Origin: Gemmataceae bacterium
GTDB taxonomy: Bacteria > Planctomycetota > Planctomycetia > Gemmatales > Gemmataceae
NCBI GenBank assembly: GCA_046350095.1
Contig: JAXMBA010000002.1
Coordinates: forward strand, 1,532,718-1,564,717
DNA: 32,000 nt
Direction of reading: 5' to 3'
The translations under genes were made by a program, and so were the position numbers. Shown piece after piece: positions 3,978-27,924 of this stretch (the first letter of the stretch is position 1; every line of letters starts with the position of its first letter). Below the pieces are notes generated by a model. It was given only the letters and a program-made list of their open reading frames with translations, searched no databases and was not told the DNA's origin.

Positions 3978-4712
3978 ATGTGCCCGACGCGGATTCGCAT
4001 CGCCCTCGTCGCATTCGGTCTGGCCGCTCTCAGCGTGGCTGGCCTCCCCGCCCTCGCCGGCGCGCAAGTGAGCGATTACCCCGAAGGGGGTGCTCCTGGC
4101 GCGGTCCAGAAGGGCACGCCGAAAGCGGACCCCAAATACTACCTCTGGAAGTACCAAGGCTCCACCGACAAGTGGAAAAAAGTCAAGGATAATCAGGGCA
4201 AGGAGGTGGAAGACAAATCCCACAAGGCGCTTCACAATTTAGCCAAGGCGAACCAAGGCTGGCGGCTCGTCCATCCCCAGTATTGGAACGAGGCTGCGAC
4301 GCTACGGACAGCCACCCCCCTCGTTATGTACACGATCACGCTCGACGGCGGGTCTCCTCCCAACCCGAACTCGACCGACCCCGGTCAACTCAATTTCTGT
4401 CTCTACCACTGCGAGGACAGGTGGGTCTACAAGGATACGAACCCTAGCTTCCAGTGCCTCTACGACTCCCCGCTGAATGCGAACTGTGTCGAGTTCCGCG
4501 ACTGCAAAGAGGCGTGTGGGCTCCGTACCCGAAAGGACGCGATGTACTTCACCGTCTGCAAGGACGGCGAAGATTTGTACAACGGTCGGAAGTGCTGTGA
4601 GCCGGAACCCGTCATGGACCGTGTCTTGCTCCCCGCCTGCTACCCGGTCCCCGTCGAGAAGCAGCACTGCTCCCTGTTCGACCGGATCCGCGCGCGGCGC
4701 CTCTGCCGGTAG
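3978..4712 (+). CDS. Secreted cysteine-rich hypothetical protein with atypical low-GC codon usage
   Basis: ATG at 3978 gives a signal-peptide-like N-terminus, MCPTRIRIALVAFGLAALSVAGLPALAGA/QV. Twelve Cys residues are all in the last ~110 residues. The N-terminal half is Lys-rich. The gene uses A/T-rich codons (aaa, aat, gat, and one tta at 4239-4241) that are otherwise rare in this window. The ORF-track start at 3831 is probably too far upstream. I recognise no family. Confidence 0.6.
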   Translation: MCPTRIRIALVAFGLAALSVAGLPALAGAQVSDYPEGGAPGAVQKGTPKADPKYYLWKYQGSTDKWKKVKDNQGKEVEDKSHKALHNLAKANQGWRLVHPQYWNEAATLRTATPLVMYTITLDGGSPPNPNSTDPGQLNFCLYHCEDRWVYKDTNPSFQCLYDSPLNANCVEFRDCKEACGLRTRKDAMYFTVCKDGEDLYNGRKCCEPEPVMDRVLLPACYPVPVEKQHCSLFDRIRARRLCR

Positions 4713-7529: not shown

Positions 7530-10067
7530 ATGAGCGAGGCTGACGAGGCCGGCCCGCGGGCGTGCGAGCCGGCACCGACCGGGTTCCCCGCGGTCGAACG
7601 ACCCGACCCCGCCCGCGCCTGCCGGCGGATCGTGCGGGTGGGCGTCGCCGTCGGGGCGGCCGTCGGGCTGACCTGCCTGGTCGGCTGGTGGTTCGCCCTC
7701 GGGCCGCTCGGCGAGCGCGACTCCTACTACACCCTGGCCCCGAGCGTCAGCCTGGGGTTCGTCCTGATCGGGGCCGCCGTCCTCGCCCGGGTCGAGCGCC
7801 CGACCTGCCCGCGGGCGGGGGCGGCCGCGGCCGCGGCGGCCGCCCTCGCGGTCGGCTGGGGGGCGGTCCGCGTCGCCGAGCACCTGGCCGGGCGGGCCGA
7901 CCACGAGACGACCGACTACCGCCTCCTCGACGCCCTCTGGCGGGTCGGCGCGGCCGGGCCCGGCGACGCGGTGATGTCCCCGATCACCGCCGCCAACTTC
8001 GCCCTGGCCGGCGTCGCCCTGGCCCTCCTGTCGTGGGCTCACCCCCGAACCCGGGCCGCCGCGGCGGCGCTGGCCGCGGTGGTCGCCACGGTCAACGCCC
8101 TGCTGCTCGTGGACTACGCCCTCGGGGCCGAGCTGGTCTACCGGTCCGCGGTGTTCATCTCCGTCCAGACCGGGCTGGTCTGGGTGTTCCTGGGCTCGGC
8201 CCTGATGGCGGCGGCCGGGCCCGACCGGTGGCCGCTGCGGCGGGTGGTCGGCGCCACGTCCACCGAGGCGCGGCTGCTGCGGGCGTTCCTCCCGGTCACC
8301 CTGGCCGCCCTGCTGGTCGCCAGCGCCCTCCACAACCTCACCTACGGGTCGAAGGGGGTGATCGCCGACAAGGCCCTGGTGCCGAAGGAGTACCAGGCCC
8401 TGGTCGGCGCCGTCTGGACCCTGCTCACCGCCGCGGTGGTCGGCGCGATCGTGGTCCGGTTCGCCCGCGGCATCGCCCGGCAGCTGGACCGGGCCGAGGC
8501 CGAGCGGTGCCGCGTCCTCGACGAGCTCCGCGCCGCCCGGGACGCCGCCGACGCCTCCAACCGGGCCAAGAGCCAGTTCCTGGCGAACATGAGCCACGAG
8601 CTGCGCACCCCGCTCAACGCGGTGATCGGGTACAGCGAGCTGCTGGCCGACGCGGCCGGCGACGACGGCCGCGCCGAGTACCTGCCGGACCTGGGGAAGA
8701 TTCACGCCGCCGGGAAGCACCTGCTCACCCTCATCAACGACATCCTCGACCTGTCCAAGATCGAGGCCGGGCGGGTCACCCTGGCCCCGGAGGCGGTGGA
8801 CGTTTCGGCCCTGGTCGCCACCGCGGCCACCACCATCCGCCCGCTGGTCGAGAAGAACGGGAACACGTTCGTGGTGGACTGCCCGGCCGGCGCCGGCGAG
8901 CTCACGGCCGACCCGACGCGGGTCCGCCAGTGCCTGTACAACCTGCTCGGCAACGCCGGCAAGTTCACCGACCGCGGGGAGGTGCGGCTGGAGGTCGCCC
9001 GGGAGGAGCGGGGCGGGGCCGGGTGGGTGGTGTTCCGCGTCCGCGACACCGGCATCGGCATGACGCCCGAGCAGCTCGGCCGGATCTTCCAGCCGTTCGT
9101 CCAGGCCGACCTCTCGACGACGCGGAAGTACGGCGGGACCGGCCTGGGGCTGACCATCACCCGCAAGCTGGCCCGGATGATGGGCGGGGACGTGCGGGTG
9201 GCGAGCGAGCCGGGGCGGGGGACGGAGTTCACCCTGGAGCTCCCGGCCCGCCCGGCGGCCGCCCCGGCGCTCACGGCCGCGCCGGTCGCGGCCGCCGCCC
9301 TGCCCCGGCCGGGGGTCGGGAACACGGTGGTGGCGGTGGACGACGACCCGGCCGTGCTCGACATCCTGACGCGGTACCTGACCGGCGAGGGGTACCGGGT
9401 GGTGGCGGTGCCGAACGGGGCCGACGCCGTCCGCGTGTGCCGCGAGGTCCGGCCCGCGGCCGTCACCCTCGACGTGATGATGCCGGAGGTGGACGGGTGG
9501 TCGGTCCTGGCCGCGCTGAAGGCCGACCCGGAGCTGGCCGGGATCCCGGTGATCATGCTGACGATCGTGGAGGACCGGAGCCTGGGGCACGCCCTCGGCG
9601 CGGCCGACTACCTGTTCAAGCCGGTCGACCCGGGCCGGCTGCTGGCGACCGTCCGCCGGCACGCGCCGGCCCGGCGGGGGCTGGCGCTGATGGTCGAGGA
9701 CGACGGCCCGACGCGGGAGATCGTGCGGCGGATGCTGGAGAGCGACGGCTGGGCGGTGGCCGAGGCGGGCAACGGGCGGGAGGCGCTGGGGTGCGTGGGG
9801 CGGGCGAAGCCGGGGCTGATCGTCCTCGACCTGATGATGCCGGAGATGGACGGGTTCGAGTTCCTGACGGAGTTGCAGCGGCACCCGGACTGGCGGTCGA
9901 TCCCGGTGATGGTGGTGACGGCCAAGGACTTGACCCCGGAGGACCGGGGGTTCCTGAACGGGTCGCTGATGCTCAGCGGGGCGGGCCGGCGGGTGCTCCA
10001 GAAGGGGGCGTTCAGCCGCGAGGACCTGTTGCGCGAGGTCCGCGACCTGCTGGCCGTGCGGGTCTAA
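7530..10067 (+). CDS. Hybrid sensor histidine kinase: multi-pass membrane sensor region, HisKA, HATPase_c and two C-terminal receiver domains
   Basis: The N-terminal ~300 aa are hydrophobic with several predicted TM helices, including the [19 protein letters not shown] segment. H-box [19 protein letters not shown] at about nt 8590-8645. ATPase motifs [16 protein letters not shown] and [12 protein letters not shown]1 is [14 protein letters not shown]...[11 protein letters not shown]...FKP. REC2 is [13 protein letters not shown]...[11 protein letters not shown]...VVTAKD. Confidence 0.9.
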
Positions 10068-10142: not shown

Positions 10143-10240
10143 GGGGGGTGTTTACTCGGCTGGTGCCGGTCCCGGTCTTCAAAACCGGTGAGGGGTGTGA
10201 ACAACGCCCCTGGTGGGTTCGATTCCCATCCACCCCCGCC
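10143..10240 (+). tRNA. selC: Probable selenocysteine tRNA (tRNA-Sec, anticodon UCA)
   Basis: Hand-folded cloverleaf. Acceptor 10144-10150 gggggtg pairs with 10231-10237 caccccc. D stem 10156-10160/10165-10169 has a 4-nt loop tggt. Anticodon stem 10172-10176 ccggt pairs with 10184-10188 accgg, loop cttcaaa, anticodon tca at 10179-10181. A long variable arm has a 7-bp stem, 10191-10197/10205-10211. T arm gtggg-ttcgatt-cccat spans 10213-10229. Acceptor plus T helix totals 13 bp. CCA is not fully encoded. The exact ends are uncertain by 1-3 nt. Confidence 0.7.
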
Positions 10241-10265: not shown

Positions 10266-11699
10266 CTACACCAGCTCCCCGATCACGTCGCCGTGCGGGA
10301 GCATCGGCATCGGCCGGCCGCTGCCGTCGGGGAAGCTCGTCCGGTTGGGGTCGATGTTCAGGTGCCGGAACACCGTCGCCCACAGGTCGTTCGGCGACAG
10401 CGGCCGGTCCTTCGGCACCTCCGCCCGCGCCGTCGTGCTCCCCACCACCTGCCCCGTCTTGCACGCGCCACTGACGAGGATGCTCATCGCGTTCGGCCAG
10501 TGGTCGCGGCCCGGCTGCGTCACGCCCGTCTGCGAGCCCACCGTGTACTCCACCTTCGGCGTCCGCCCGAACTCGCCCGTCACCACCAGCAGCACCCGGC
10601 GGTTCAGCCCGCGCAGGTACAGGTCGTCGATCAGCGCCGCGATCGCCTGGTCCAGGAAGCCGAGCTTGTACCTGGTGTCGTCGAAGATGTGGCAGTTGAC
10701 CGCGTGCGAGTCCCAGTTGTAGGTGTGGTTCTTCTTCATCTCGCCGCCGAACGGGGTGGCGTTCTCCATCACCATCGTCACCCAGCTGGCCCCGTGCTCG
10801 ACCAGCCGCCGGGCCAGCAGCGCCCGCTGGCCGTAGCGGTGCATGCCGTAGCGGTCGCGGGTGCGGGCGTCCTCGCGGCGGAGGTCGAAGGCGTTCCGCG
10901 CCGTGTCGGTCGTCACCAGCTCGAGCGCCCGGCCGCGGTGGTTGTCCACCGCGCCGGCGGCGCCGGTGATGTCGGACCCGCGCAGGGGGCGGTCGAGGGC
11001 GCCGAGCACGCCCACGCGCTCGGCCAGCCGCGCCGACTGCTCGGGCCGCGCGCTCAGCCCCTGGATGTCGAACTTCGGGTCGGACGGGTCGCCGTGGAAG
11101 GTGAACGGGTGGCTCTGCGGGCCGAGGTACGCCGAGCCGAAGCTGAACGTGTCGATCTGCTGCCGGCCGCCGTCCACGCCGCAGACGTAGTTCGGCACCG
11201 CGGCGTGCCGGTGCTTCAGCACCTCCGCGGCCATGGACCCGACCATCGGCGTGTCGTTCACGAAGCCGACCGGCTGCGCCGGGTCGCGGCCGGTGAGGAA
11301 GCGCTTGTGGCCGCCGCCGTGGTCGGCGAAGCGGTGGCTTACGGAGCGGATGAGGGCGTACTTGTCGGCCATCGTGGCGAGCCGCGGCAGGTGCTCGCAG
11401 ACGTCGATGCCGGGGACGTTCGTGCGGACGGGCCGGTAGGCGCCGCGGTACTCCTCGGGCGCGTCCGGCTTCATGTCGAACGTGTCCTGGTGCGGCGGCC
11501 CGCCGGGGAGCCACACGAAGATCACGGCCGGGTCGTTGGTGGTGTGGTCGTCCGGGCTGCCGTGGGCGGTGAGGCCGTGGGCGGCGGACGCGAGGGCGAC
11601 GGAGCCGAACTTGAGCGCGTCCCGGCGGCTGGGGCCGGGGCAGGGGCGGGCGGGCATCGCGACGGGCTCCGCGGGCGCGGGCGGTGGGTGGAGGGCCAC
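10266..11699 (-). CDS. DUF1501 family protein (sulfatase-fold, Tat-signal), typical of Planctomycetota
   Basis: Twin-arginine signal SRRDALKFGSVALASAAHG. DUF1501-type block FVWLPGGPPHQDTFDMKPDAPEEYRGAYRPVRTNVPGIDVCEHLPRLATMADKYALIRSVSH. C-terminal TGEFGRTP...GRDHW. The start is either GTG at 11699 or ATG at 11657. Confidence 0.85.
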   Translation of the reverse strand: MALHPPPAPAEPVAMPARPCPGPSRRDALKFGSVALASAAHGLTAHGSPDDHTTNDPAVIFVWLPGGPPHQDTFDMKPDAPEEYRGAYRPVRTNVPGIDVCEHLPRLATMADKYALIRSVSHRFADHGGGHKRFLTGRDPAQPVGFVNDTPMVGSMAAEVLKHRHAAVPNYVCGVDGGRQQIDTFSFGSAYLGPQSHPFTFHGDPSDPKFDIQGLSARPEQSARLAERVGVLGALDRPLRGSDITGAAGAVDNHRGRALELVTTDTARNAFDLRREDARTRDRYGMHRYGQRALLARRLVEHGASWVTMVMENATPFGGEMKKNHTYNWDSHAVNCHIFDDTRYKLGFLDQAIAALIDDLYLRGLNRRVLLVVTGEFGRTPKVEYTVGSQTGVTQPGRDHWPNAMSILVSGACKTGQVVGSTTARAEVPKDRPLSPNDLWATVFRHLNIDPNRTSFPDGSGRPMPMLPHGDVIGELV

Positions 11700-14001: not shown

Positions 14002-14049
14002 CCGCACGGTTGGCCGACTGCCTCTCCCCTCAGTCGACCAACCGTGCGG
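14002..14049 (+). terminator. Stem-loop after the MBL hydrolase gene (putative terminator)
   Basis: ccgcacggttggccgactg (14002-14020) pairs with cagtcgaccaaccgtgcgg (14031-14049), 19 bp with one C/A mismatch. The loop is cctctcccct. No clear U-tract follows. Confidence 0.45.
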
Positions 14050-14202
14050 TGTCAGGCTCTCGCCGCCTGAAGATAAAGCAGGGTGCGTGCCACGGCCGCG
14101 GCGCGGAACCCGGAGCGGCATTCGTCAACGCCTAAAGTGTCATCACGGAACGACTTCTGGCGGTCAGAAAAATCGCCCGCGGGACGTGACAGGATACCGA
14201 TT

Positions 14203-14237
14203 CACGGCGAATTGCCCAATATGACGGCAAACTGCCC
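14203..14237. promoter_or_regulatory. Two similar 15-nt sites spaced 20 bp apart upstream of fhcD (candidate operator)
   Basis: cACGGCGAATTGCCC is at 14203-14217 and gACGGCAAACTGCCC at 14223-14237. Each contains a GGC-N5-GCC dyad. They lie in a lower-GC 420-bp intergenic region, about 170 bp upstream of the fhcD start. Confidence 0.25.
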
Positions 14238-14406
14238 GCGAAAGTGCGCAGTCATCGCGCATCTGGCAGCGAAACCCCAACGCTCTTTTGTGGCATCGAC
14301 TCATTTCGTGCCCTGACCCCCCGGGGGGTGCGGAGACACACAATGTGGTTGGCTTGACCGTGGGCCGGGAATGCGGACAATCACCGCTGCCCCCCGGGAG
14401 CCCGAC

Positions 14407-15315
14407 ATGCCGGCGACGATCGACGACACGTATGCCGAGGCCTTCCGCAGCATCTACGCCTCCGTGCTCGTGACGGCCCGCGACCGCACCTGGCTCGACC
14501 ACGCCATCAACGCCGCCACCGGCAACGCCAGCTCGGCCATCCTCTGCGACTGCGAAGCGGGGTTGGATCGCTATGTGGACGCGAGCGAAACGCCCGACGG
14601 CCGGCCCGGCGCGATCGTGCAGTTCCACGTGCCGCGGTTCTGGAAGGACCGCGAGGCGAAGCTGGAGCGATCGGTGCTCGTGCGGGTGTGCCAGAACGTG
14701 CTGACGTGCCCGACGACGGCGGCGTTCAACGTGCTGCCGGCCGAGGAGAAGTGGTTCCCGCTGGGGCGGAAGGTGTCGTACTTCGGCGACGGCCACCAGT
14801 ACGCGGCGGAGCGGTTCGGGCGGCGCTGCTGGGTGGTGCCGATCCTCAGCGGCGAGTTCGTGATCGAGCGCCGCTGCGGCTGGGCCGAGGGGCTGATGGG
14901 CGGCAACCTGTGGTTCTTCGGCGCCACCGCCGACGGGGCGCTGGAAGGCGCCACCCGCGCGGCGGCCGCAGCGGCGCAGACCCCGGGGGTGATCCTGCCG
15001 TTCCCCGGCGGCGTGGCGAGCAGCGGGTCGAAGGCGGGCAGCAAGTACAAGTTCGCCATCGCCAGCACCTACGCCGAGTACTGCCCGACGCTGCGGGACT
15101 CGATGGGCGAGGCGAGCAAGCTGCCGGCCGGCGTGGCGAGCGTGCAGGAGATCATCATCAACGGCCGCGACCTGGCGACGATCGCCGCCGCGACGCAGGC
15201 GGCGATCGCCGCGGCGCGGGACACGCCGGGGCTGCTGACGATCTCGGCGGGGAATTATGGGGGGAGGTTGGGCAAGAGTTTCGTGTACCTGCACCCCGAG
15301 AAGCAACCGGCGTGA
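14407..15315 (+). CDS. fhcD: Formylmethanofuran-tetrahydromethanopterin N-formyltransferase (Ftr / FhcD-like)
   Basis: The N-terminal block IDDTYAEAFRSIYASVLVTARDRTWLDHAINAATGNASSAILCDCEAGL resembles the conserved Ftr N-terminus. The length (~300 aa) fits. The C-terminal half is Gly-rich. I prefer ATG at 14407 over the track start at 14371. Confidence 0.78.
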   Translation: MPATIDDTYAEAFRSIYASVLVTARDRTWLDHAINAATGNASSAILCDCEAGLDRYVDASETPDGRPGAIVQFHVPRFWKDREAKLERSVLVRVCQNVLTCPTTAAFNVLPAEEKWFPLGRKVSYFGDGHQYAAERFGRRCWVVPILSGEFVIERRCGWAEGLMGGNLWFFGATADGALEGATRAAAAAAQTPGVILPFPGGVASSGSKAGSKYKFAIASTYAEYCPTLRDSMGEASKLPAGVASVQEIIINGRDLATIAAATQAAIAAARDTPGLLTISAGNYGGRLGKSFVYLHPEKQPA

Positions 15316-15321
15316 AACAGG

Positions 15322-15443
15322 AAGGCATTTTTTGACAGGATAACAGGATGAAGCAGGATGGAAGACAAAGACAAAATATCAATTTAAATTCTGTCTTTGT
15401 CTTCCATCCTGCTTCATCCTGTTATCCTGTCAAAAAATGCCTT
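15322..15443. repeat. Perfect inverted repeat (52-bp arms, 18-nt loop), AT-rich, between convergent genes
   Basis: 15322-15373 is the exact reverse complement of 15392-15443, checked base by base. The loop is aaatatcaatttaaattc. See findings. Confidence 0.95.
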
Positions 15444-15449
15444 TGTTCT

Positions 15450-16667
15450 TCACCCCAGCCCCGTGATCCCGTCCAGCAGCTTGCGTAGCTCCTCGACCTG
15501 GCGCGTGCAGTGCGCCACCGCGGCGGGGCCGTGCCGCACCGCCAGCGCCCGCACCGCCTCGACCAGCCCCAGCGCCGTGTCGGCGTCCACCACCGCGTTG
15601 GCGTCGGCGTCGAGCCCCTCGCGCAGCCGCGCCATCACCGCGTCCGGCGGCGGCCCCGGCAGCCCCACAGCCGACATCGCCGCTTCCACGCCCGAACTCG
15701 CCCGCAGCGCCGCCTCGACCGCGTCGAACAGGAGCCGGTGCGTCTGCCGCTCCGCCACCGCCTGCCGCAGCAGGTCCGCCCCCACCTCCGCGGCCGCGGC
15801 GACCAGCCGGCGGTCGTCGTCGGTGAAGCCGCCGGGCTTGTCGAACAGCTCCAGCGCCACGAGCGTGCTGCCGCCGACGGCCAGCGGCGCCGCCAGCACG
15901 GCGGCGCGGCCGTGCTCGAACGGGAACAGGTCGAGCACGCCGGCCGAGCCGCCGGAGAAGTCGTTCAACACCGCGGGCTCCGTCCGGCTCACGACCGACG
16001 CGGCGAGCGACCGGTTGAACGGCACGTCGCCGGTCGAGAGGAACTGCCCGTCCGGCCCGTAGGCGACCGTCACGTCGGTGCCGTCCGGGGAGTGGTGGCG
16101 GATCACGAGCGCGCCGTCCGCGGCGCCGACGGCCCGGCCGGCGAACTTGAGCAGCGACTTCACCGCCGTCGGCAGCGGCACCGGGTCGTTGAGGGCCGCG
16201 GCCGACCGCACGATCGGCAGCACCTTCTCGACCGCCTCGCGGAACGCGGCGAGGGTGCGGTTCACCTCGCGCTGCCGCTTCGCCGGGCGGATGCGGTCGA
16301 GCTGCCGGCCCACGGCCGCGACGAACGCCTCGCGGGTCAGGTCGGTGCTCTTGTCGAGGTAGTCGCGGACGCCCATGCGCAGCGCGTCGAGCGGCGTCGC
16401 CTGGTGGGCGAAGCCGGTGACCATGATCGCCACGATCTCGGGCTGGAAGACGACGAGGTCTTCGAGGAGGCGGAGGCCGTCGGAGCCGGAGCCGAGGTTC
16501 CAGTCGAGGACGGCCAAGTCGATGGGCGTCTGGTTGGCGATGGTGAGCGCCGCCTCGGCGTCGGCGGCGGCGAGCACGCGGACGCCGAGGCCGCTCCCCT
16601 TGAGCCACTCCTCGAAGGTGCGGCGGACGGGCTCCTCGTCGTCGACGATCAGGACGGCGTCGGTCAT
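15450..16667 (-). CDS. Response regulator with a receiver domain, a GAF-like domain and a C-terminal helical region of unknown function
   Basis: From ATG at 16667 the product starts MTDAVLIVDDEEPVRRTF, then DLAVLDWNLGSGSDG, MVTGFA and DYLDK. The middle region (ALVIRHHSPDGTDVTVAYGPDG...LAAPLAVGGSTLVALELFDKPGGFTDDD) looks GAF-like. No DNA-binding or enzymatic output motif is recognisable. Confidence 0.8.
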   Translation of the reverse strand: MTDAVLIVDDEEPVRRTFEEWLKGSGLGVRVLAAADAEAALTIANQTPIDLAVLDWNLGSGSDGLRLLEDLVVFQPEIVAIMVTGFAHQATPLDALRMGVRDYLDKSTDLTREAFVAAVGRQLDRIRPAKRQREVNRTLAAFREAVEKVLPIVRSAAALNDPVPLPTAVKSLLKFAGRAVGAADGALVIRHHSPDGTDVTVAYGPDGQFLSTGDVPFNRSLAASVVSRTEPAVLNDFSGGSAGVLDLFPFEHGRAAVLAAPLAVGGSTLVALELFDKPGGFTDDDRRLVAAAAEVGADLLRQAVAERQTHRLLFDAVEAALRASSGVEAAMSAVGLPGPPPDAVMARLREGLDADANAVVDADTALGLVEAVRALAVRHGPAAVAHCTRQVEELRKLLDGITGLG

Positions 16668-16668
16668 G

Positions 16669-16962
16669 TCACCCCTCCGCCAGTCCATGATACGCGGCGA
16701 GGGCGTCGGCGAACCGGCCGGCCAACAGTCGCGCGCAGGCTGCCACGCGCAGCGCGTCGGGCGTGCGGCGGACCGACGCGGACTGCCGCGCGAGCGCTTC
16801 CGACTCGGCGACGCGGCCGGCGGCGAGGGCGGCCCGCGCCGCGGCGAGGAGGCGCGCGGCGTCGGCGTCGGCGGCGAACAGGAGCGCGAGGTCGGCCTTG
16901 CAGCGGCGGCAGGCGGGGCCGGCGTCGTTGGCGGCTTTGCAGCACGGGCAGGGGACGGGCAT
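16669..16962 (-). CDS. Small zinc-ribbon protein (CxCC...CxxC) with an Ala-rich TPR-like helical tail
   Basis: MPVPCPCCKAANDAGPACRRCKADL, followed by Ala/Leu/Arg helices. Its stop (tca at 16669-16671 on the plus strand) lies 1 nt before the ATG of the REC-GAF gene, which suggests translational coupling. The composition is close to that of high-GC shadow ORFs, so confidence is moderate. Confidence 0.55.
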   Translation of the reverse strand: MPVPCPCCKAANDAGPACRRCKADLALLFAADADAARLLAAARAALAAGRVAESEALARQSASVRRTPDALRVAACARLLAGRFADALAAYHGLAEG

Positions 16963-19654: not shown

Positions 19655-19880
19655 GGGTTTTCACCCGGAAGGGGTGAGAGCCCTCAGCCCAGGACAAGGC
19701 CCGAAGGGCCGCCGCCCTGGGTACGGGGATCCAACCACCCCGCAGGCTGAAGGCCTGCCAGCCGGCTCGCAGGCCTTCAGCCTGCAAATCCCAACCCTTC
19801 ACACCCAGGGCGGCGCCGCTTCGCGGCTCGCCCTGGGCCGAGGGCTGCCAGGCCTTCGGCCTGAAAACCCCGGCACCGAC
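19655..19880. repeat. Composite cluster of GC-rich nested palindromic (REP/MITE-like) units
   Basis: Hairpins: caccc-ggaag-gggtg at 19662-19676; ggccc-gaa-gggcc at 19698-19710; gcaggc-tgaag-gcctgc at 19742-19758 and its inverted copy at 19769-19785; gccgc-ttc-gcggc at 19815-19827. Positions 19804-19870 match 26838-26904 at 61 of 67 positions by manual alignment. Confidence 0.8.
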
Positions 19881-26346: not shown

Positions 26347-26802
26347 ATGGCGAAGCCGCTGCCGCACGACATCGAGGTCGAGGTTGCCCGGCTCTCCGAA
26401 GCGGCGGAAGACCGCGCGGACGCCGAGGACGATTCGGAAGCGTTGGCCCTGTTTCAAGCCGCGTGGGACTTGCTCCCCGACCCGAAGACGGAGTGGGAGC
26501 GGGCGTCGCAACTGCTGGGCGGGATCGCCGACAGTCACTTCCATCTCGGCGCCTTCGAGTCGTGTCGCCGGGCCATGCAGGAAGCGATGCGGAGCGGCAG
26601 CGGGCCGGAGAACCCGTTCGTTTGTCTGCGGTTGGGTCAGTGCCACCTCGAACTCGGCGACGAACGCGGCGCCGCGAACTGGCTCACGGGTGCTCTGATG
26701 GGTGGCGGCCTGGAGATGTTTGAGGAGGAAGACCCGAAATACTGGGCCTTCCTCCGCGAGCGGCTAGACCCGCCCCCGGGTGGGTGGCCGGCGGGGTGGT
26801 AG
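26347..26802 (+). CDS. Small TPR-like helical hypothetical protein
   Basis: Helix-pair pattern (EALALFQAAWDLL..., HFHLGAFESCRRAMQEAM, CLRLGQCHLELGDERGAANWL). Codon usage is consistent with coding. Confidence 0.55.
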   Translation: MAKPLPHDIEVEVARLSEAAEDRADAEDDSEALALFQAAWDLLPDPKTEWERASQLLGGIADSHFHLGAFESCRRAMQEAMRSGSGPENPFVCLRLGQCHLELGDERGAANWLTGALMGGGLEMFEEEDPKYWAFLRERLDPPPGGWPAGW

Positions 26803-26808
26803 GCCGGA

Positions 26809-26900
26809 TTTCAGGCCGAAGGCCTGGCAGCCCTCAGCCCAGGGCGGCGCGACTTCGTCGCTTGCCCTGGGCTGAGGGCTGCCAGGCCTTCGGCCTGAAA
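26809..26900. repeat. Nested palindromic REP/MITE-like element (37-bp perfect arms plus an inner hairpin)
   Basis: 26809-26845 tttcaggccgaaggcctggcagccctcagcccagggc is the exact reverse complement of 26864-26900. The inner hairpin gcgac-ttc-gtcgc is at 26849-26861. It lies between convergent gene ends at 26802 and 26953. Confidence 0.9.
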
Positions 26901-26952: not shown

Positions 26953-27924
26953 TTAGCGGCCGATCACGGTGTCGAACGCCTGCCGCAGCTCGGTGTGGTT
27001 CTGCGGGCGGTCGGCCGGGTCCTTCGACAGCATCCACAGGCACAGGTCCGACGCCAGCGGCGGCACCCCCGGCGCCCGCTGCGCCGGCGGCACCGGCGCG
27101 CTGCTCAGGTGCTGGAAGATCACCTGCACCCGGTTCTTCCCCTCGAACGGCAGCCGGCCCGTCAGCGCCTCGTACAGCGTCACGCCCAGGGAATAGATGT
27201 CCGCCCGGTGGTCCACGGTGGCGGCGTCCTTCGCCTGTTCCGGGGCCAGGTACGCCGCGGTGCCGGCCAGTTCCGGCACGCCGTCCGCCCGGCCGGCCTG
27301 CAGCGCGTCCGCCTTCGCCAGCCCGAAGTCGATCAGCTTGCACGACCCGTTCGGCCCCACCAGCACGTTGTCCGGCTTCACGTCGCGGTGGACCACGCCC
27401 GCCTGCCAGACCGCCCCGAGGGCGTCCGCCATCTGCGACACGAGGTGCAGCGCCCACCCGACCGGCAGCGCGCCGCCGGCCCGCAGCAGTTCGCCGAGCG
27501 GCCGGCCCTCGAAGAACTCGGTGACGAGGTACGGCCAGCGCGGGTCGAACCCGAAGTCCATGAACCGCACCACCTGCGGGTGCTTCACCCGGCTCAGCGT
27601 CAGCGCCTCCGTGCGGAGTTGCTTCATCGCCGCGGCCCGGTCGAACACGTTCGCCCAGTTCAGGATCTTCAGCGCCACGGGGGCGCTGCGTGCGGCGTCC
27701 CAGCCGCGGAAGACGTGGCACGACACGCCCTCGCCGAGCTTGTCCTGCAGCGTGAACGTGCCGACGGTGTCGCCGGTCTGCGGCGGCGGCGGCGTCTCCT
27801 GCGGCGGCTCGGCGGTGACCTCGCGCTGGAGGTACGCCAGCGCCCGCGTGTCGCCCGAGCGGGCCGACACGGTGGCGGTGATGCCGGTGGGCGACGTGGG
27901 CGGGGCGATTTCGCGTGAACTCAT
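26953..27924 (-). CDS. Ser/Thr protein kinase (stand-alone catalytic domain)
   Basis: GEGVSCHVF glycine loop, VALKIL, HRDVKPDNVLV, DFGLAK and GTAAYLAPEQ. Confidence 0.88.
   Translation of the reverse strand: MSSREIAPPTSPTGITATVSARSGDTRALAYLQREVTAEPPQETPPPPQTGDTVGTFTLQDKLGEGVSCHVFRGWDAARSAPVALKILNWANVFDRAAAMKQLRTEALTLSRVKHPQVVRFMDFGFDPRWPYLVTEFFEGRPLGELLRAGGALPVGWALHLVSQMADALGAVWQAGVVHRDVKPDNVLVGPNGSCKLIDFGLAKADALQAGRADGVPELAGTAAYLAPEQAKDAATVDHRADIYSLGVTLYEALTGRLPFEGKNRVQVIFQHLSSAPVPPAQRAPGVPPLASDLCLWMLSKDPADRPQNHTELRQAFDTVIGR

Follow-up and report, generated by a model that had tools for sequence, protein, structure and literature searches.

What is a long, mismatch-free and AT-rich palindrome doing between two convergent genes in DNA that is otherwise very rich in GC? 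The question is raised by a 32,000-nt stretch of the genome of a Gemmataceae bacterium (Planctomycetota; assembly GCA_046350095.1, contig JAXMBA010000002.1), here called the window, in which fhcD and a response-regulator receiver and GAF gene (REC-GAF) end face to face and the palindrome fills the spacer between their stop codons. An earlier note on the sequence implied that the 52-bp stem is exceptional and offered a bidirectional terminator or RNA-processing element, a foldback insertion or a protein-bound site as explanations, with no preference among them. By its sequence the palindrome is shown to be a copy of a dispersed family of hairpin-forming intergenic repeats. The reading favoured here, with a probability of roughly 0.6, is that this gene-less family copy serves as a dual 3′-end hairpin resembling repetitive extragenic palindromic (REP) sequences and that it was perfected by copying from one arm to the other.

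The evidence for a family starts from a second Gemmataceae genome (locus L009, GCA_006365155.1), where a perfect palindrome with 40-bp arms, GAAAATAGACAGGATAACAGGATGAACAGGATACCGAACC, directly follows fhcD beside a different neighbouring gene. It has a core 19-mer, GACAGGATAACAGGATGAA, in common with the window palindrome. The same 19-mer is present in at least 120 contigs of the JGI metagenomes, of 0.32-0.70 GC among the matches listed (the basis of all metagenome counts below); by a rough estimate only a few of its occurrences would be due to chance. Conservation extends beyond the search pattern, with tTTn upstream and C.GGAT downstream. The motif is paired with downstream sequence in the folds of 74 of 122 instances, and the inverted partner practically always lies downstream (upstream in 0 of 107 at a score of at least 30). 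Most metagenome copies are imperfect hairpins adjoining gene 3′ ends. The partner arm, whose consensus is unbiased by the search pattern, reads TTTTTnGACAGGAT(n1-3)ACAGGAT(n2-3)AC(A)GGAT, and the family consensus is tTTnGACAGG...CCTGTCnAAA; the arm model has the consensus TAAATTTTTTGACAGGATAACAGGATTGACAGGATATTTA, with CAGGATGGAAGACAAAGACA in addition.

An nhmmer model was built from 41 metagenome partner arms, none of which contains the exact 19-mer and none of which comes from Gemmataceae. It matches both arms in the window (15326-15354, and 15439-15411 on the minus strand; E = 4e-6), both arms in L009 (8e-6) and a further Gemmataceae hairpin at L139 4078-4184 (5e-5 and 8e-4), giving three Gemmataceae loci in three genomes. 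The window copy shows the layout of the family: a T-run, at least two ACAGGAT-like units at 8-10-nt spacing, a downstream inverted partner, and the purine arm on the 5′ side. Metagenome loci carry about one additional family copy per 24 kb. The named hosts are Cloacimonadota, candidate division KSB1 and Gemmataceae (Planctomycetota), and the metagenome neighbours are ordinary chromosomal genes, for example those for S16, sulfatases, YjeF and galactokinase. One and the same non-coding family spans at least three phyla, which is new relative to the earlier finding. With same-family copies at unrelated loci, the idea of an element specific to this locus has to be given up.

The ACAGGAT hairpin family is previously undescribed. 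Rfam searches with 17 family loci and the window gave no family besides tRNAs, the other matches being sub-threshold, generic and to miRNA-like hairpins, and the searchable literature contained no match to the family sequence and nothing relevant on GxxExxY proteins, Gemmata palindromes or the CsrA motif strings discussed below. An association with phages was rejected, only 2 of the contigs among the matches listed being viral. The ATG in GGATGAA was rejected as a gene start (median ORF of 15 codons, the same as in a shifted-frame control), and so was TTGACA as a sigma-70 promoter: the base before GACA varies across the family and no -10 partner is seen. Target-site duplications are lacking at all three Gemmataceae copies, whose flanks (AACAGG/TGTTCT in the window, GCGATTG/TTCCCTC in L009 and GCGATTG/TCGGCGG in L139) contain no direct repeats. 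The earlier note had held that many dispersed copies with such duplications would mark the element as a miniature inverted-repeat transposable element (MITE). Dispersed copies there are, at three Gemmataceae loci and in at least 120 metagenome contigs, but duplications and sharply defined ends are lacking; the element is therefore REP-like or foldback-like and not a textbook MITE.

The window copy itself is much as the earlier note had described it. The arms match in 52 of 52 positions, each is separated by 6 nt from the nearest stop codon, the dyad lies midway between the convergent stops, and the A/T loop contains the self-complementary AATTTAAATT. The latter (15381-15390) is 3 nt away from the dyad axis, which runs between 15382 and 15383. 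GC content is 0.40 in the arm and 0.37 in the 134-bp spacer, as against 0.733 in the window. Each arm holds three CAGGAT and two tandem AAGACA repeats, the left one running from AAGGCA (15322-27) and T6 (15328-33) through the ACAGGAT units GACAGGAT, AACAGGAT and GAAGCAGGAT (15334-59) and GG to AAGACAAAGACA (15362-73). Because the flanking pentamers are also complementary (Table 1), both stop codons lie within an imperfect outward extension of the palindrome. The whole element of 122 bp consists of an inverted repeat and its loop, is non-coding and carries no gene, features of size and terminal inverted repeats that are shared with MITEs. It folds into a very stable hairpin, at -105.9 kcal/mol as RNA (shuffles -34.1 +/- 3.8, z = -18.7) and -69.4 kcal/mol as single-stranded DNA (shuffles -15.8, z = -19.2). 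Folding and the counts of inverted repeats in shuffled sequence exclude a chance origin. No further copy of the arm was found within the 32-kb window, with up to 10 substitutions allowed or by 12-mers, and a plasmid BLAST with the element gave nothing beyond one chance 30-nt match in Nostoc. Matches to NCBIfam and Pfam bear out both gene identities. The start of FhcD (302 aa) was set from homologues, of which one from a Gemmataceae metagenome-assembled genome (P0001, 302 aa) is 100% identical; REC-GAF homologues (403-409 aa, 96% identity), the nearest of which include one named Urbifossiella sp., place the start of that gene near 16670.

Table 1. Features at the fhcD/REC-GAF junction (positions within the 32,000-nt window)
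Feature	Position	Strand	Remarks
fhcD (formylmethanofuran--tetrahydromethanopterin N-formyltransferase)	14407..15315	+	stop TGA 15313-15315; NCBIfam NF002554 4e-102, TIGR03119 9e-94
Left flank	15312..15321		GTGAA 15312-15316 complementary to TTCAC 15449-15453; AACAGGAA is a degenerate ACAGGAT-like unit
Left arm, 52 nt, AAGGCATTTTTTGACAGGATAACAGGATGAAGCAGGATGGAAGACAAAGACA	15322..15373		exact reverse complement of 15392-15443
Loop, 18 nt A/T, AAATATCAATTTAAATTC	15374..15391		6/9 positions pair across the dyad
Right arm, 52 nt	15392..15443		left arm mirrored: TGTCTTTGTCTT, CC, ATCCTGCTTC/ATCCTGTT/ATCCTGTC, A6, TGCCTT
Right flank, TGTTCTTCAC	15444..15453		+ strand tail moderately U-rich; holds TCA stop of convergent gene
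Response-regulator receiver + GAF gene (REC-GAF)	15450..16688	-	stop TCA (reverse complement of TGA) 15450-15452; Pfam Response_reg 3e-18, GAF_2 4e-7

The orthologous spacers of related genomes, which the earlier note had proposed to inspect, do not contain the window palindrome; unrelated palindromes take its place. Between fhcD and REC-GAF, L001 and L002 have a perfect GC-rich palindrome with 37-bp arms, L135 a perfect one with 27-bp arms, and L137 and L138 the perfect TTAAGAGCGGGG...CCCCGCTCTTAA with 32-bp arms. These are related neither to one another nor to that of the window, at an fhcD nucleotide identity of 88-92%. Two of them reach into the genes. In L135 (9235-9300) the left arm encodes the C-terminus of FhcD, which is replaced and ends in ...TNAASRPPSGGGA instead of ...HPEKQPA. 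In L137 (1480-1568) the arms take in both TAA stops, and the last codon of both genes is altered (A->V, G->S). When fhcD or REC-GAF has another neighbour a hairpin still follows provided that the spacer is sizeable (L009, L139, L144); L004 and L011, with spacers of only 9-17 nt, have none, and in L010 there is just a weak imperfect hairpin about 200 nt downstream. Since close relatives hold unrelated palindromes in the orthologous spacer, turnover must be fast, and these comparisons show it to be extreme, which is likewise new relative to the earlier finding. Relatives keep hairpins of unrelated sequence, so the requirement of the site is "a palindrome" and not the sequence found in the window. 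A locus-specific operator, palindromic and protein-bound, finds no support, given this lack of conservation. At a second orthologous spacer, located divergently between a gene of about 940 aa and a TPR gene, the palindromes are likewise unrelated, L139 having the ACAGGAT-type hairpin at 4078-4184 and L135 a GC-rich perfect palindrome with 61-bp arms at 2088-2258.

The L139 copy bears on how the window palindrome became perfect. It belongs to another genome and another spacer, in which the divergent gene encodes 941 aa. In addition to the ACAGGAT units it shares with the window CAGGATGGAAGACAAAGACAGA(G/A)TTTA(G/A)AATT, which covers the inner module of the arm and a portion of the loop; the window loop read on the minus strand is partially homologous to the L139 loop, GA(A/G)TTTA(A/G)AATT. 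The L139 hairpin has 31-bp arms with 3 mismatches and an asymmetric loop of 42 nt. A 14-nt module, GGAAGACAAAGACA, occurs in one arm in L139, in both arms in the window and in neither arm in L009. On the simplest reading the window copy would have been homogenised and extended inward by arm-to-arm copying, and would be a young, "perfected" version of the family hairpin. The mismatches were most likely removed by templated copying between the arms (template switching in replication, or quasipalindrome correction), and copying of the 14-nt loop module onto the other arm most likely lengthened an imperfect stem of about 30 bp to 52 bp. The same process fits the way in which the palindromes of L137 and L135 extend outward over stop codons and coding ends, and it would also account for spacers filled from stop to stop. 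The suggestion in the earlier note of conversion between the arms or a recent origin agrees with the imperfect and asymmetric L139 homologue and with the full replacement of the orthologous spacer sequence in relatives.

Template switching is known to homogenise and expand the arms of inverted repeats and to create perfect RNA hairpins (PMC8794818, PMC13100816, PMC7202029). The comparison of L139 with the window matches quasipalindrome template-switch mutagenesis as described there, in that imperfect inverted repeats are made perfect and longer. The difference is that this is a mutational process and not a family of elements, and that its events at the present locus are ones that we infer. The scale is also unusual, with at least 14 nt copied and palindromes reaching stop codons.

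Perfect palindromes turn out to be a habit of Gemmataceae spacers. A census of 114 kb of related Gemmataceae loci with deposited gene calls (perfect arms of at least 15 bp, loop of at most 120 nt) yielded 29 perfect inverted repeats, compared with 0-2 in mononucleotide shuffles. Of these, 26 are intergenic, though intergenic bases make up only 11%. Such repeats are present in 8 of the 17 convergent, 16 of the 60 tandem and 2 of the 16 divergent spacers; the start of most of them is near a stop codon, in many cases no more than about 10 nt away. Related genomes have perfect arms measuring 51, 56 and 61 bp, and for this reason a stem of 52 bp is unexceptional in Gemmataceae, contrary to what the earlier note implied. 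Among hairpins with arms of at least 18 bp, 21 of 43 are perfect and the remainder have 1-7 mismatches, a gradation from young hairpins to decaying ones. In the favoured reading, Gemmataceae spacers downstream of genes, and especially convergent ones, are habitually filled from stop to stop by quickly replaced palindromes of many unrelated families.

Other hairpins of the group are built on similar lines. AT- or purine-rich hairpins made of tandem units (AAGGTAAA, ACAGGGA, GACAGAR and GTGTTTG) are found at L001 4740-4835, L001 11582-11717, L139 11225-11342 and L144 16999-17096. Since the tandem units of such arms vary, the "tandem-unit palindrome" is a recurring architecture that is not peculiar to ACAGGAT. 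Other Gemmataceae palindromes are GC-rich and REPIN-like, with tetraloop hairpins inside the arms, and recur within and between genomes. The window holds one at 26809-26900 (perfect 37-bp arms, 18-nt loop, GC 0.70), located between a convergent TPR gene (26347-26802, + strand) and a Ser/Thr kinase gene (26953-27924, - strand); its arm contains CAGGCC-TTCG-GGCCTG, a UUCG tetraloop hairpin. It belongs to a REP/REPIN-like family, CAGGCCnnnGGCCTGAAAA, that is represented three times in the window, where chance would give 0, and once in a relative. Copies related to the 26809-26900 palindrome lie at 19849-19867 and 19679-19846, and at L010 1585-1603.

The position of the hairpins is biased to gene 3′ ends. 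In the metagenomes, where gene context was taken from ORFs of at least 100 aa and deposited gene calls (naive ORF calls are noisy in GC-rich contigs), 7-8 family hairpins are in convergent, 9-13 in tandem and 0-2 in divergent spacers. The census of Gemmataceae spacers agrees. In the window itself, canonical terminators of hairpin plus U-tract show no enrichment, with 4 found and 6.5 expected. The position of the hairpins is the basis of the proposed role at transcript 3′ ends, where they would at least be tolerated. The arms of the family consist of a T-run followed by about three tandem units of 8-9 nt, always with the polarity 5′-TTTTT(nACAGGAT)3 ... (ATCCTGTn)3AAAAA-3′. Transcription from either convergent gene would give the same very stable RNA hairpin right after the stop codon, and this hairpin most likely restrains transcription from running on into the opposing gene and shields both 3′ ends against exonucleases. 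A REP-like dual 3′-end element is favoured because the element is palindromic and both convergent mRNAs would end with the same hairpin, purine-rich arm first. The terminator or RNA-processing element envisaged by the earlier note finds support in the position at gene ends and none in the polarity of the A- and T-tracts, which is opposite to the canonical one; as a whole the idea is consistent with the data but unproven.

A number of observations weigh against this reading. The RNA-level role is deduced from position only, and no proper outgroup polarises the change between L139 and the window. On both strands the core is preceded by the T-run and followed by the A-run, an order opposite to that of canonical bidirectional terminators; past the full stem, the tails UGUUCUU and CCUGUUU are U-rich to a moderate degree only. 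A consensus terminator scan did not call the window palindrome. The asymmetry of G-U versus A-C between strands relative to the upstream gene (fold energy of the transcribed versus the opposite strand) is consistent with RNA-level selection in 17 of 31 cases. The element is not strictly confined to 3′ ends, as two Gemmataceae palindromes, the L139 homologue included, occupy divergent spacers and lie shortly before start codons. As to its origin, the window copy has no target-site duplication and no mobilising enzyme was found. The copy count for the source genome covers the 32-kb window, and the inner 20-mer of both window arms, TGAAGCAGGATGGAAGACAA, gave three single chance matches in coding sequence in a genome collection that evidently lacks the source genome. 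The L139 copy and some metagenome copies lie just 5′ of start codons with an A-rich linker in between, and the element is tolerated and perhaps useful at 5′ ends as well.

The closest known counterparts are REP and REPIN sequences (PMC3116915; considered as regulators in 3′ untranslated regions in bioRxiv 10.64898/2026.03.23.713779). They too are short, non-coding, extragenic multi-copy repeats that form long hairpins, are enriched after gene 3′ ends and between convergent genes, and vary in presence among relatives; REP sequences have a proposed role in 3′-end stability or termination (PMC3116915; bioRxiv 10.64898/2026.03.23.713779). The arms described here differ in that they are direct ACAGGAT repeats in tandem and have no palindromic REP core inside them, and the window copy is perfect and much longer. 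Small tetraloop hairpins inside the arms are a feature of the neighbouring GC-rich Gemmataceae palindromes and not of the window copy. To our knowledge REPs are lineage-specific, in contrast to the phylum-crossing ACAGGAT family. No RAYT (Y1 HUH transposase) was noticed among the annotated ORFs of the window, the annotation of which is not exhaustive. MITEs and foldback elements such as Correia, ERIC and Nezha are also small, AT-rich, gene-less inverted repeats dispersed in intergenic DNA. They differ in having target-site duplications and sharp termini; moreover, the whole of the present element is one hairpin, with no terminal inverted repeats around unrelated DNA. The element is a palindromic intergenic repeat, REP/REPIN-like or foldback-MITE-like, which probably doubles as a 3′-end hairpin and for each of the named families lacks some of the defining features.

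A possible mobile origin is suggested by a gene that accompanies some of the hairpins. Genes or gene fragments for GxxExxY proteins (Pfam PDDEXK_3, 7e-41; TIGR04256, 9e-42) adjoin the motif in 16 of 120 metagenome loci among the matches listed. In all seven clear cases forward units lie to one side of the gene and reverse units to the other, whichever way the gene is oriented (for example L046 670-1213, L058 188-682 and L062 368-919; loci L013-L132). Lineage-specific short units (CACAGAGA, ACACGGATT, CGCGGAT and AATCCGTGTACC) also flank plasmid GxxExxY genes of Bacteroidota, Spirochaetota, Gemmatimonadota and Fusobacteriota (L140-L143), whose detection did not depend on the motif; the units are inverted in three cases and direct in that of Fusobacteria. 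A simple model with the gene in the loop was rejected, the usual layout being hairpin-gene-hairpin, a flanking association and not strictly one large hairpin. The GxxExxY gene is the sole recurrent bracketed gene among the matches listed; it is no known transposase, and no transposase of a parent insertion sequence was seen. GxxExxY with its bracketing arrays may be an undescribed nuclease-associated palindromic mobile unit, and would then be a possible autonomous relative of the ACAGGAT family in the manner of MITEs. To judge by this arrangement, the short hairpins may be derived from such units and carry no gene of their own. GxxExxY genes are absent from the window and from about 165 kb of Gemmataceae loci, which makes the link to the window copy indirect. 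The hairpin-bracketed genes also look cassette-like, and integron attC sites resemble the present element in that they form hairpins, vary in sequence and lie 3′ of small gene units. They differ by R and L core boxes (RYYYAAC/GTTRRRY), which are lacking at the arm ends here, as are extrahelical bases, and no integrase context is seen.

Tentatively, these arrays could be extended to a whole class of undescribed cross-phylum mobile palindromes, in which inverted arrays of lineage-specific 8-9-nt units (ACAGGAT, CACAGAGA, CGCGGAT, ACACGGATT) bracket a GxxExxY gene of the PD-(D/E)XK type and the window copy is one tip of a nuclease-driven spread; such a class is possible but speculative. The predicted nuclease would recognise the hairpin or a cruciform and drive the spread in a homing-like or REP-RAYT-like manner, gene-less copies would colonise 3′ spacers, and in Gemmataceae template switching would continually extend, perfect and replace them.

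An unlikely reading is that the palindrome is purely selfish DNA, a gene-less derivative of a GxxExxY-bracketing mobile unit that persists in 3′ spacers only because insertions do no harm there and that has no function in the RNA of the host. The association with GxxExxY in metagenomes and on plasmids of four other phyla argues for it, as do the AT-rich sequence in hosts of 32 to 73% GC and the rapid change of presence and absence at orthologous sites. Against it stand the absence of GxxExxY from the Gemmataceae DNA covered and of target-site duplications and sharp ends from the three Gemmataceae copies; about 85% of the motif loci among the matches listed have ordinary housekeeping neighbours. 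A selfish origin is in any case compatible with a co-opted RNA role, as the two are not mutually exclusive.

A bidirectional intrinsic terminator that evolved in place for the fhcD/REC-GAF pair is improbable and largely refuted by the dispersed homologues. It would explain why a very stable hairpin fills a convergent spacer exactly, symmetrically and 6 nt from each stop, and why relatives also have hairpins at the site. It does not explain homologous copies at other loci and in other phyla, the unconserved sequence at the orthologous site, or an AT-rich 52-bp stem, which is unexpected from local evolution in a genome of 73% GC. Intrinsic terminators have a short GC-rich stem (about 5-20 bp) and a loop of 3-8 nt, whereas the stem here is 52 bp long with 40% GC and the loop has 18 nt. 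The A-tract expected on the 5′ side and the T-tract on the 3′ side are reversed, T6 (15328-33) and A6 (15432-37) both being inside the stem, and moderately U-rich tails follow only the extra AAGGCA/TGCCTT extension.

Very improbable, too, is a target for a protein, be it an RNA-binding one, with the palindrome as a CsrA sponge or site, or for DNA binding as an iteron-like array. CsrA/RsmA has the consensus RUACARGGAUGU and the CsrB repeat is CAGGAUG, which the repeated (A/U)ACAGGAUG resembles. Each arm has three GGA-containing units at 8-10-nt spacing, and the unit sequence is conserved across phyla with a fixed polarity, the purine arm always being 5′ among the matches listed. The GGA of CsrB/Rsm-type small RNAs is exposed in loops or unpaired stretches, whereas every unit here is buried in the perfect duplex of the predicted minimum-free-energy fold, and Rfam gives no CsrB or Rsm match. 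Analogous arrays flanking GxxExxY use units without GGA, such as CACAGAGA, and the sequence is not conserved at the orthologous site. Hardly credible either is a structure at the level of DNA, namely a cruciform or a replication-hairpin hotspot that takes part in recombination or replication, and the same holds for an assembly artefact. For a DNA structure speak the perfect arms and the AT-rich centre, which favour cruciform extrusion, and the gene ends overwritten in L135 and L137, which are DNA-level dynamics. Against it, the context suggests no specific DNA function, and the bias to gene 3′ ends better matches tolerance or use at the RNA level. An artefact is unlikely: the palindrome is internal to a long contig, one short read would probably contain its 122 bp, and analogous palindromes are present in assemblies made independently (L001 and L002; L137 and L138).

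Other features of the window lie mostly upstream of fhcD. A hairpin at 14002-14049, between a gene with a metallo-beta-lactamase fold and fhcD and about 350 nt upstream of the fhcD start, is conserved in all seven related genomes, with an invariant C/U-rich loop, CCUCUCCCCU, and four base pairs with compensatory changes. Its counterparts are L001 5597-5644, L009 7635-7684, L004 5624-5673, L010 52-101, L135 10649-10696 and L137 2855-2902. The loop resembles an anti-Shine-Dalgarno-like sequence, and the hairpin could be a conserved terminator or a cis-regulatory RNA; it behaves in the opposite way to the fast-turnover palindrome downstream of the gene. It is followed by an unusually long non-coding stretch of about 350 nt (14050-14406) with a lower GC content of 0.59-0.64, in which TTGACC-16-GACAAT (14354-14381) is the only sigma-70-like promoter match in 20 kb. 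A selenocysteine tRNA (10144-10237, + strand; Rfam tRNA-Sec, 78.7 bits) is encoded between ORFs at 7530-10067 (+) and 10266-11699 (-), which could be sel genes.

What had been a single curious palindrome is now a testable family, a conserved non-coding hairpin repeat that is present in at least three phyla and has no Rfam model. The imperfect hairpin of L139, the perfect one of L009, the extended one of the window and the unrelated replacements in sister genomes form a natural series, also new relative to the earlier finding, of palindrome birth, perfecting, extension and replacement; template switching has so far mostly been inferred from much smaller events. The palindromes also suggest how Gemmataceae end their transcripts; the window of 73% GC is not enriched in canonical terminators. 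The association with GxxExxY offers a first genomic handle on the function of this widespread protein family. If the reading as mobile palindromes is true, the intergenic 3′ regions would be a fast-evolving "palindrome layer" that also supplies transcript ends.

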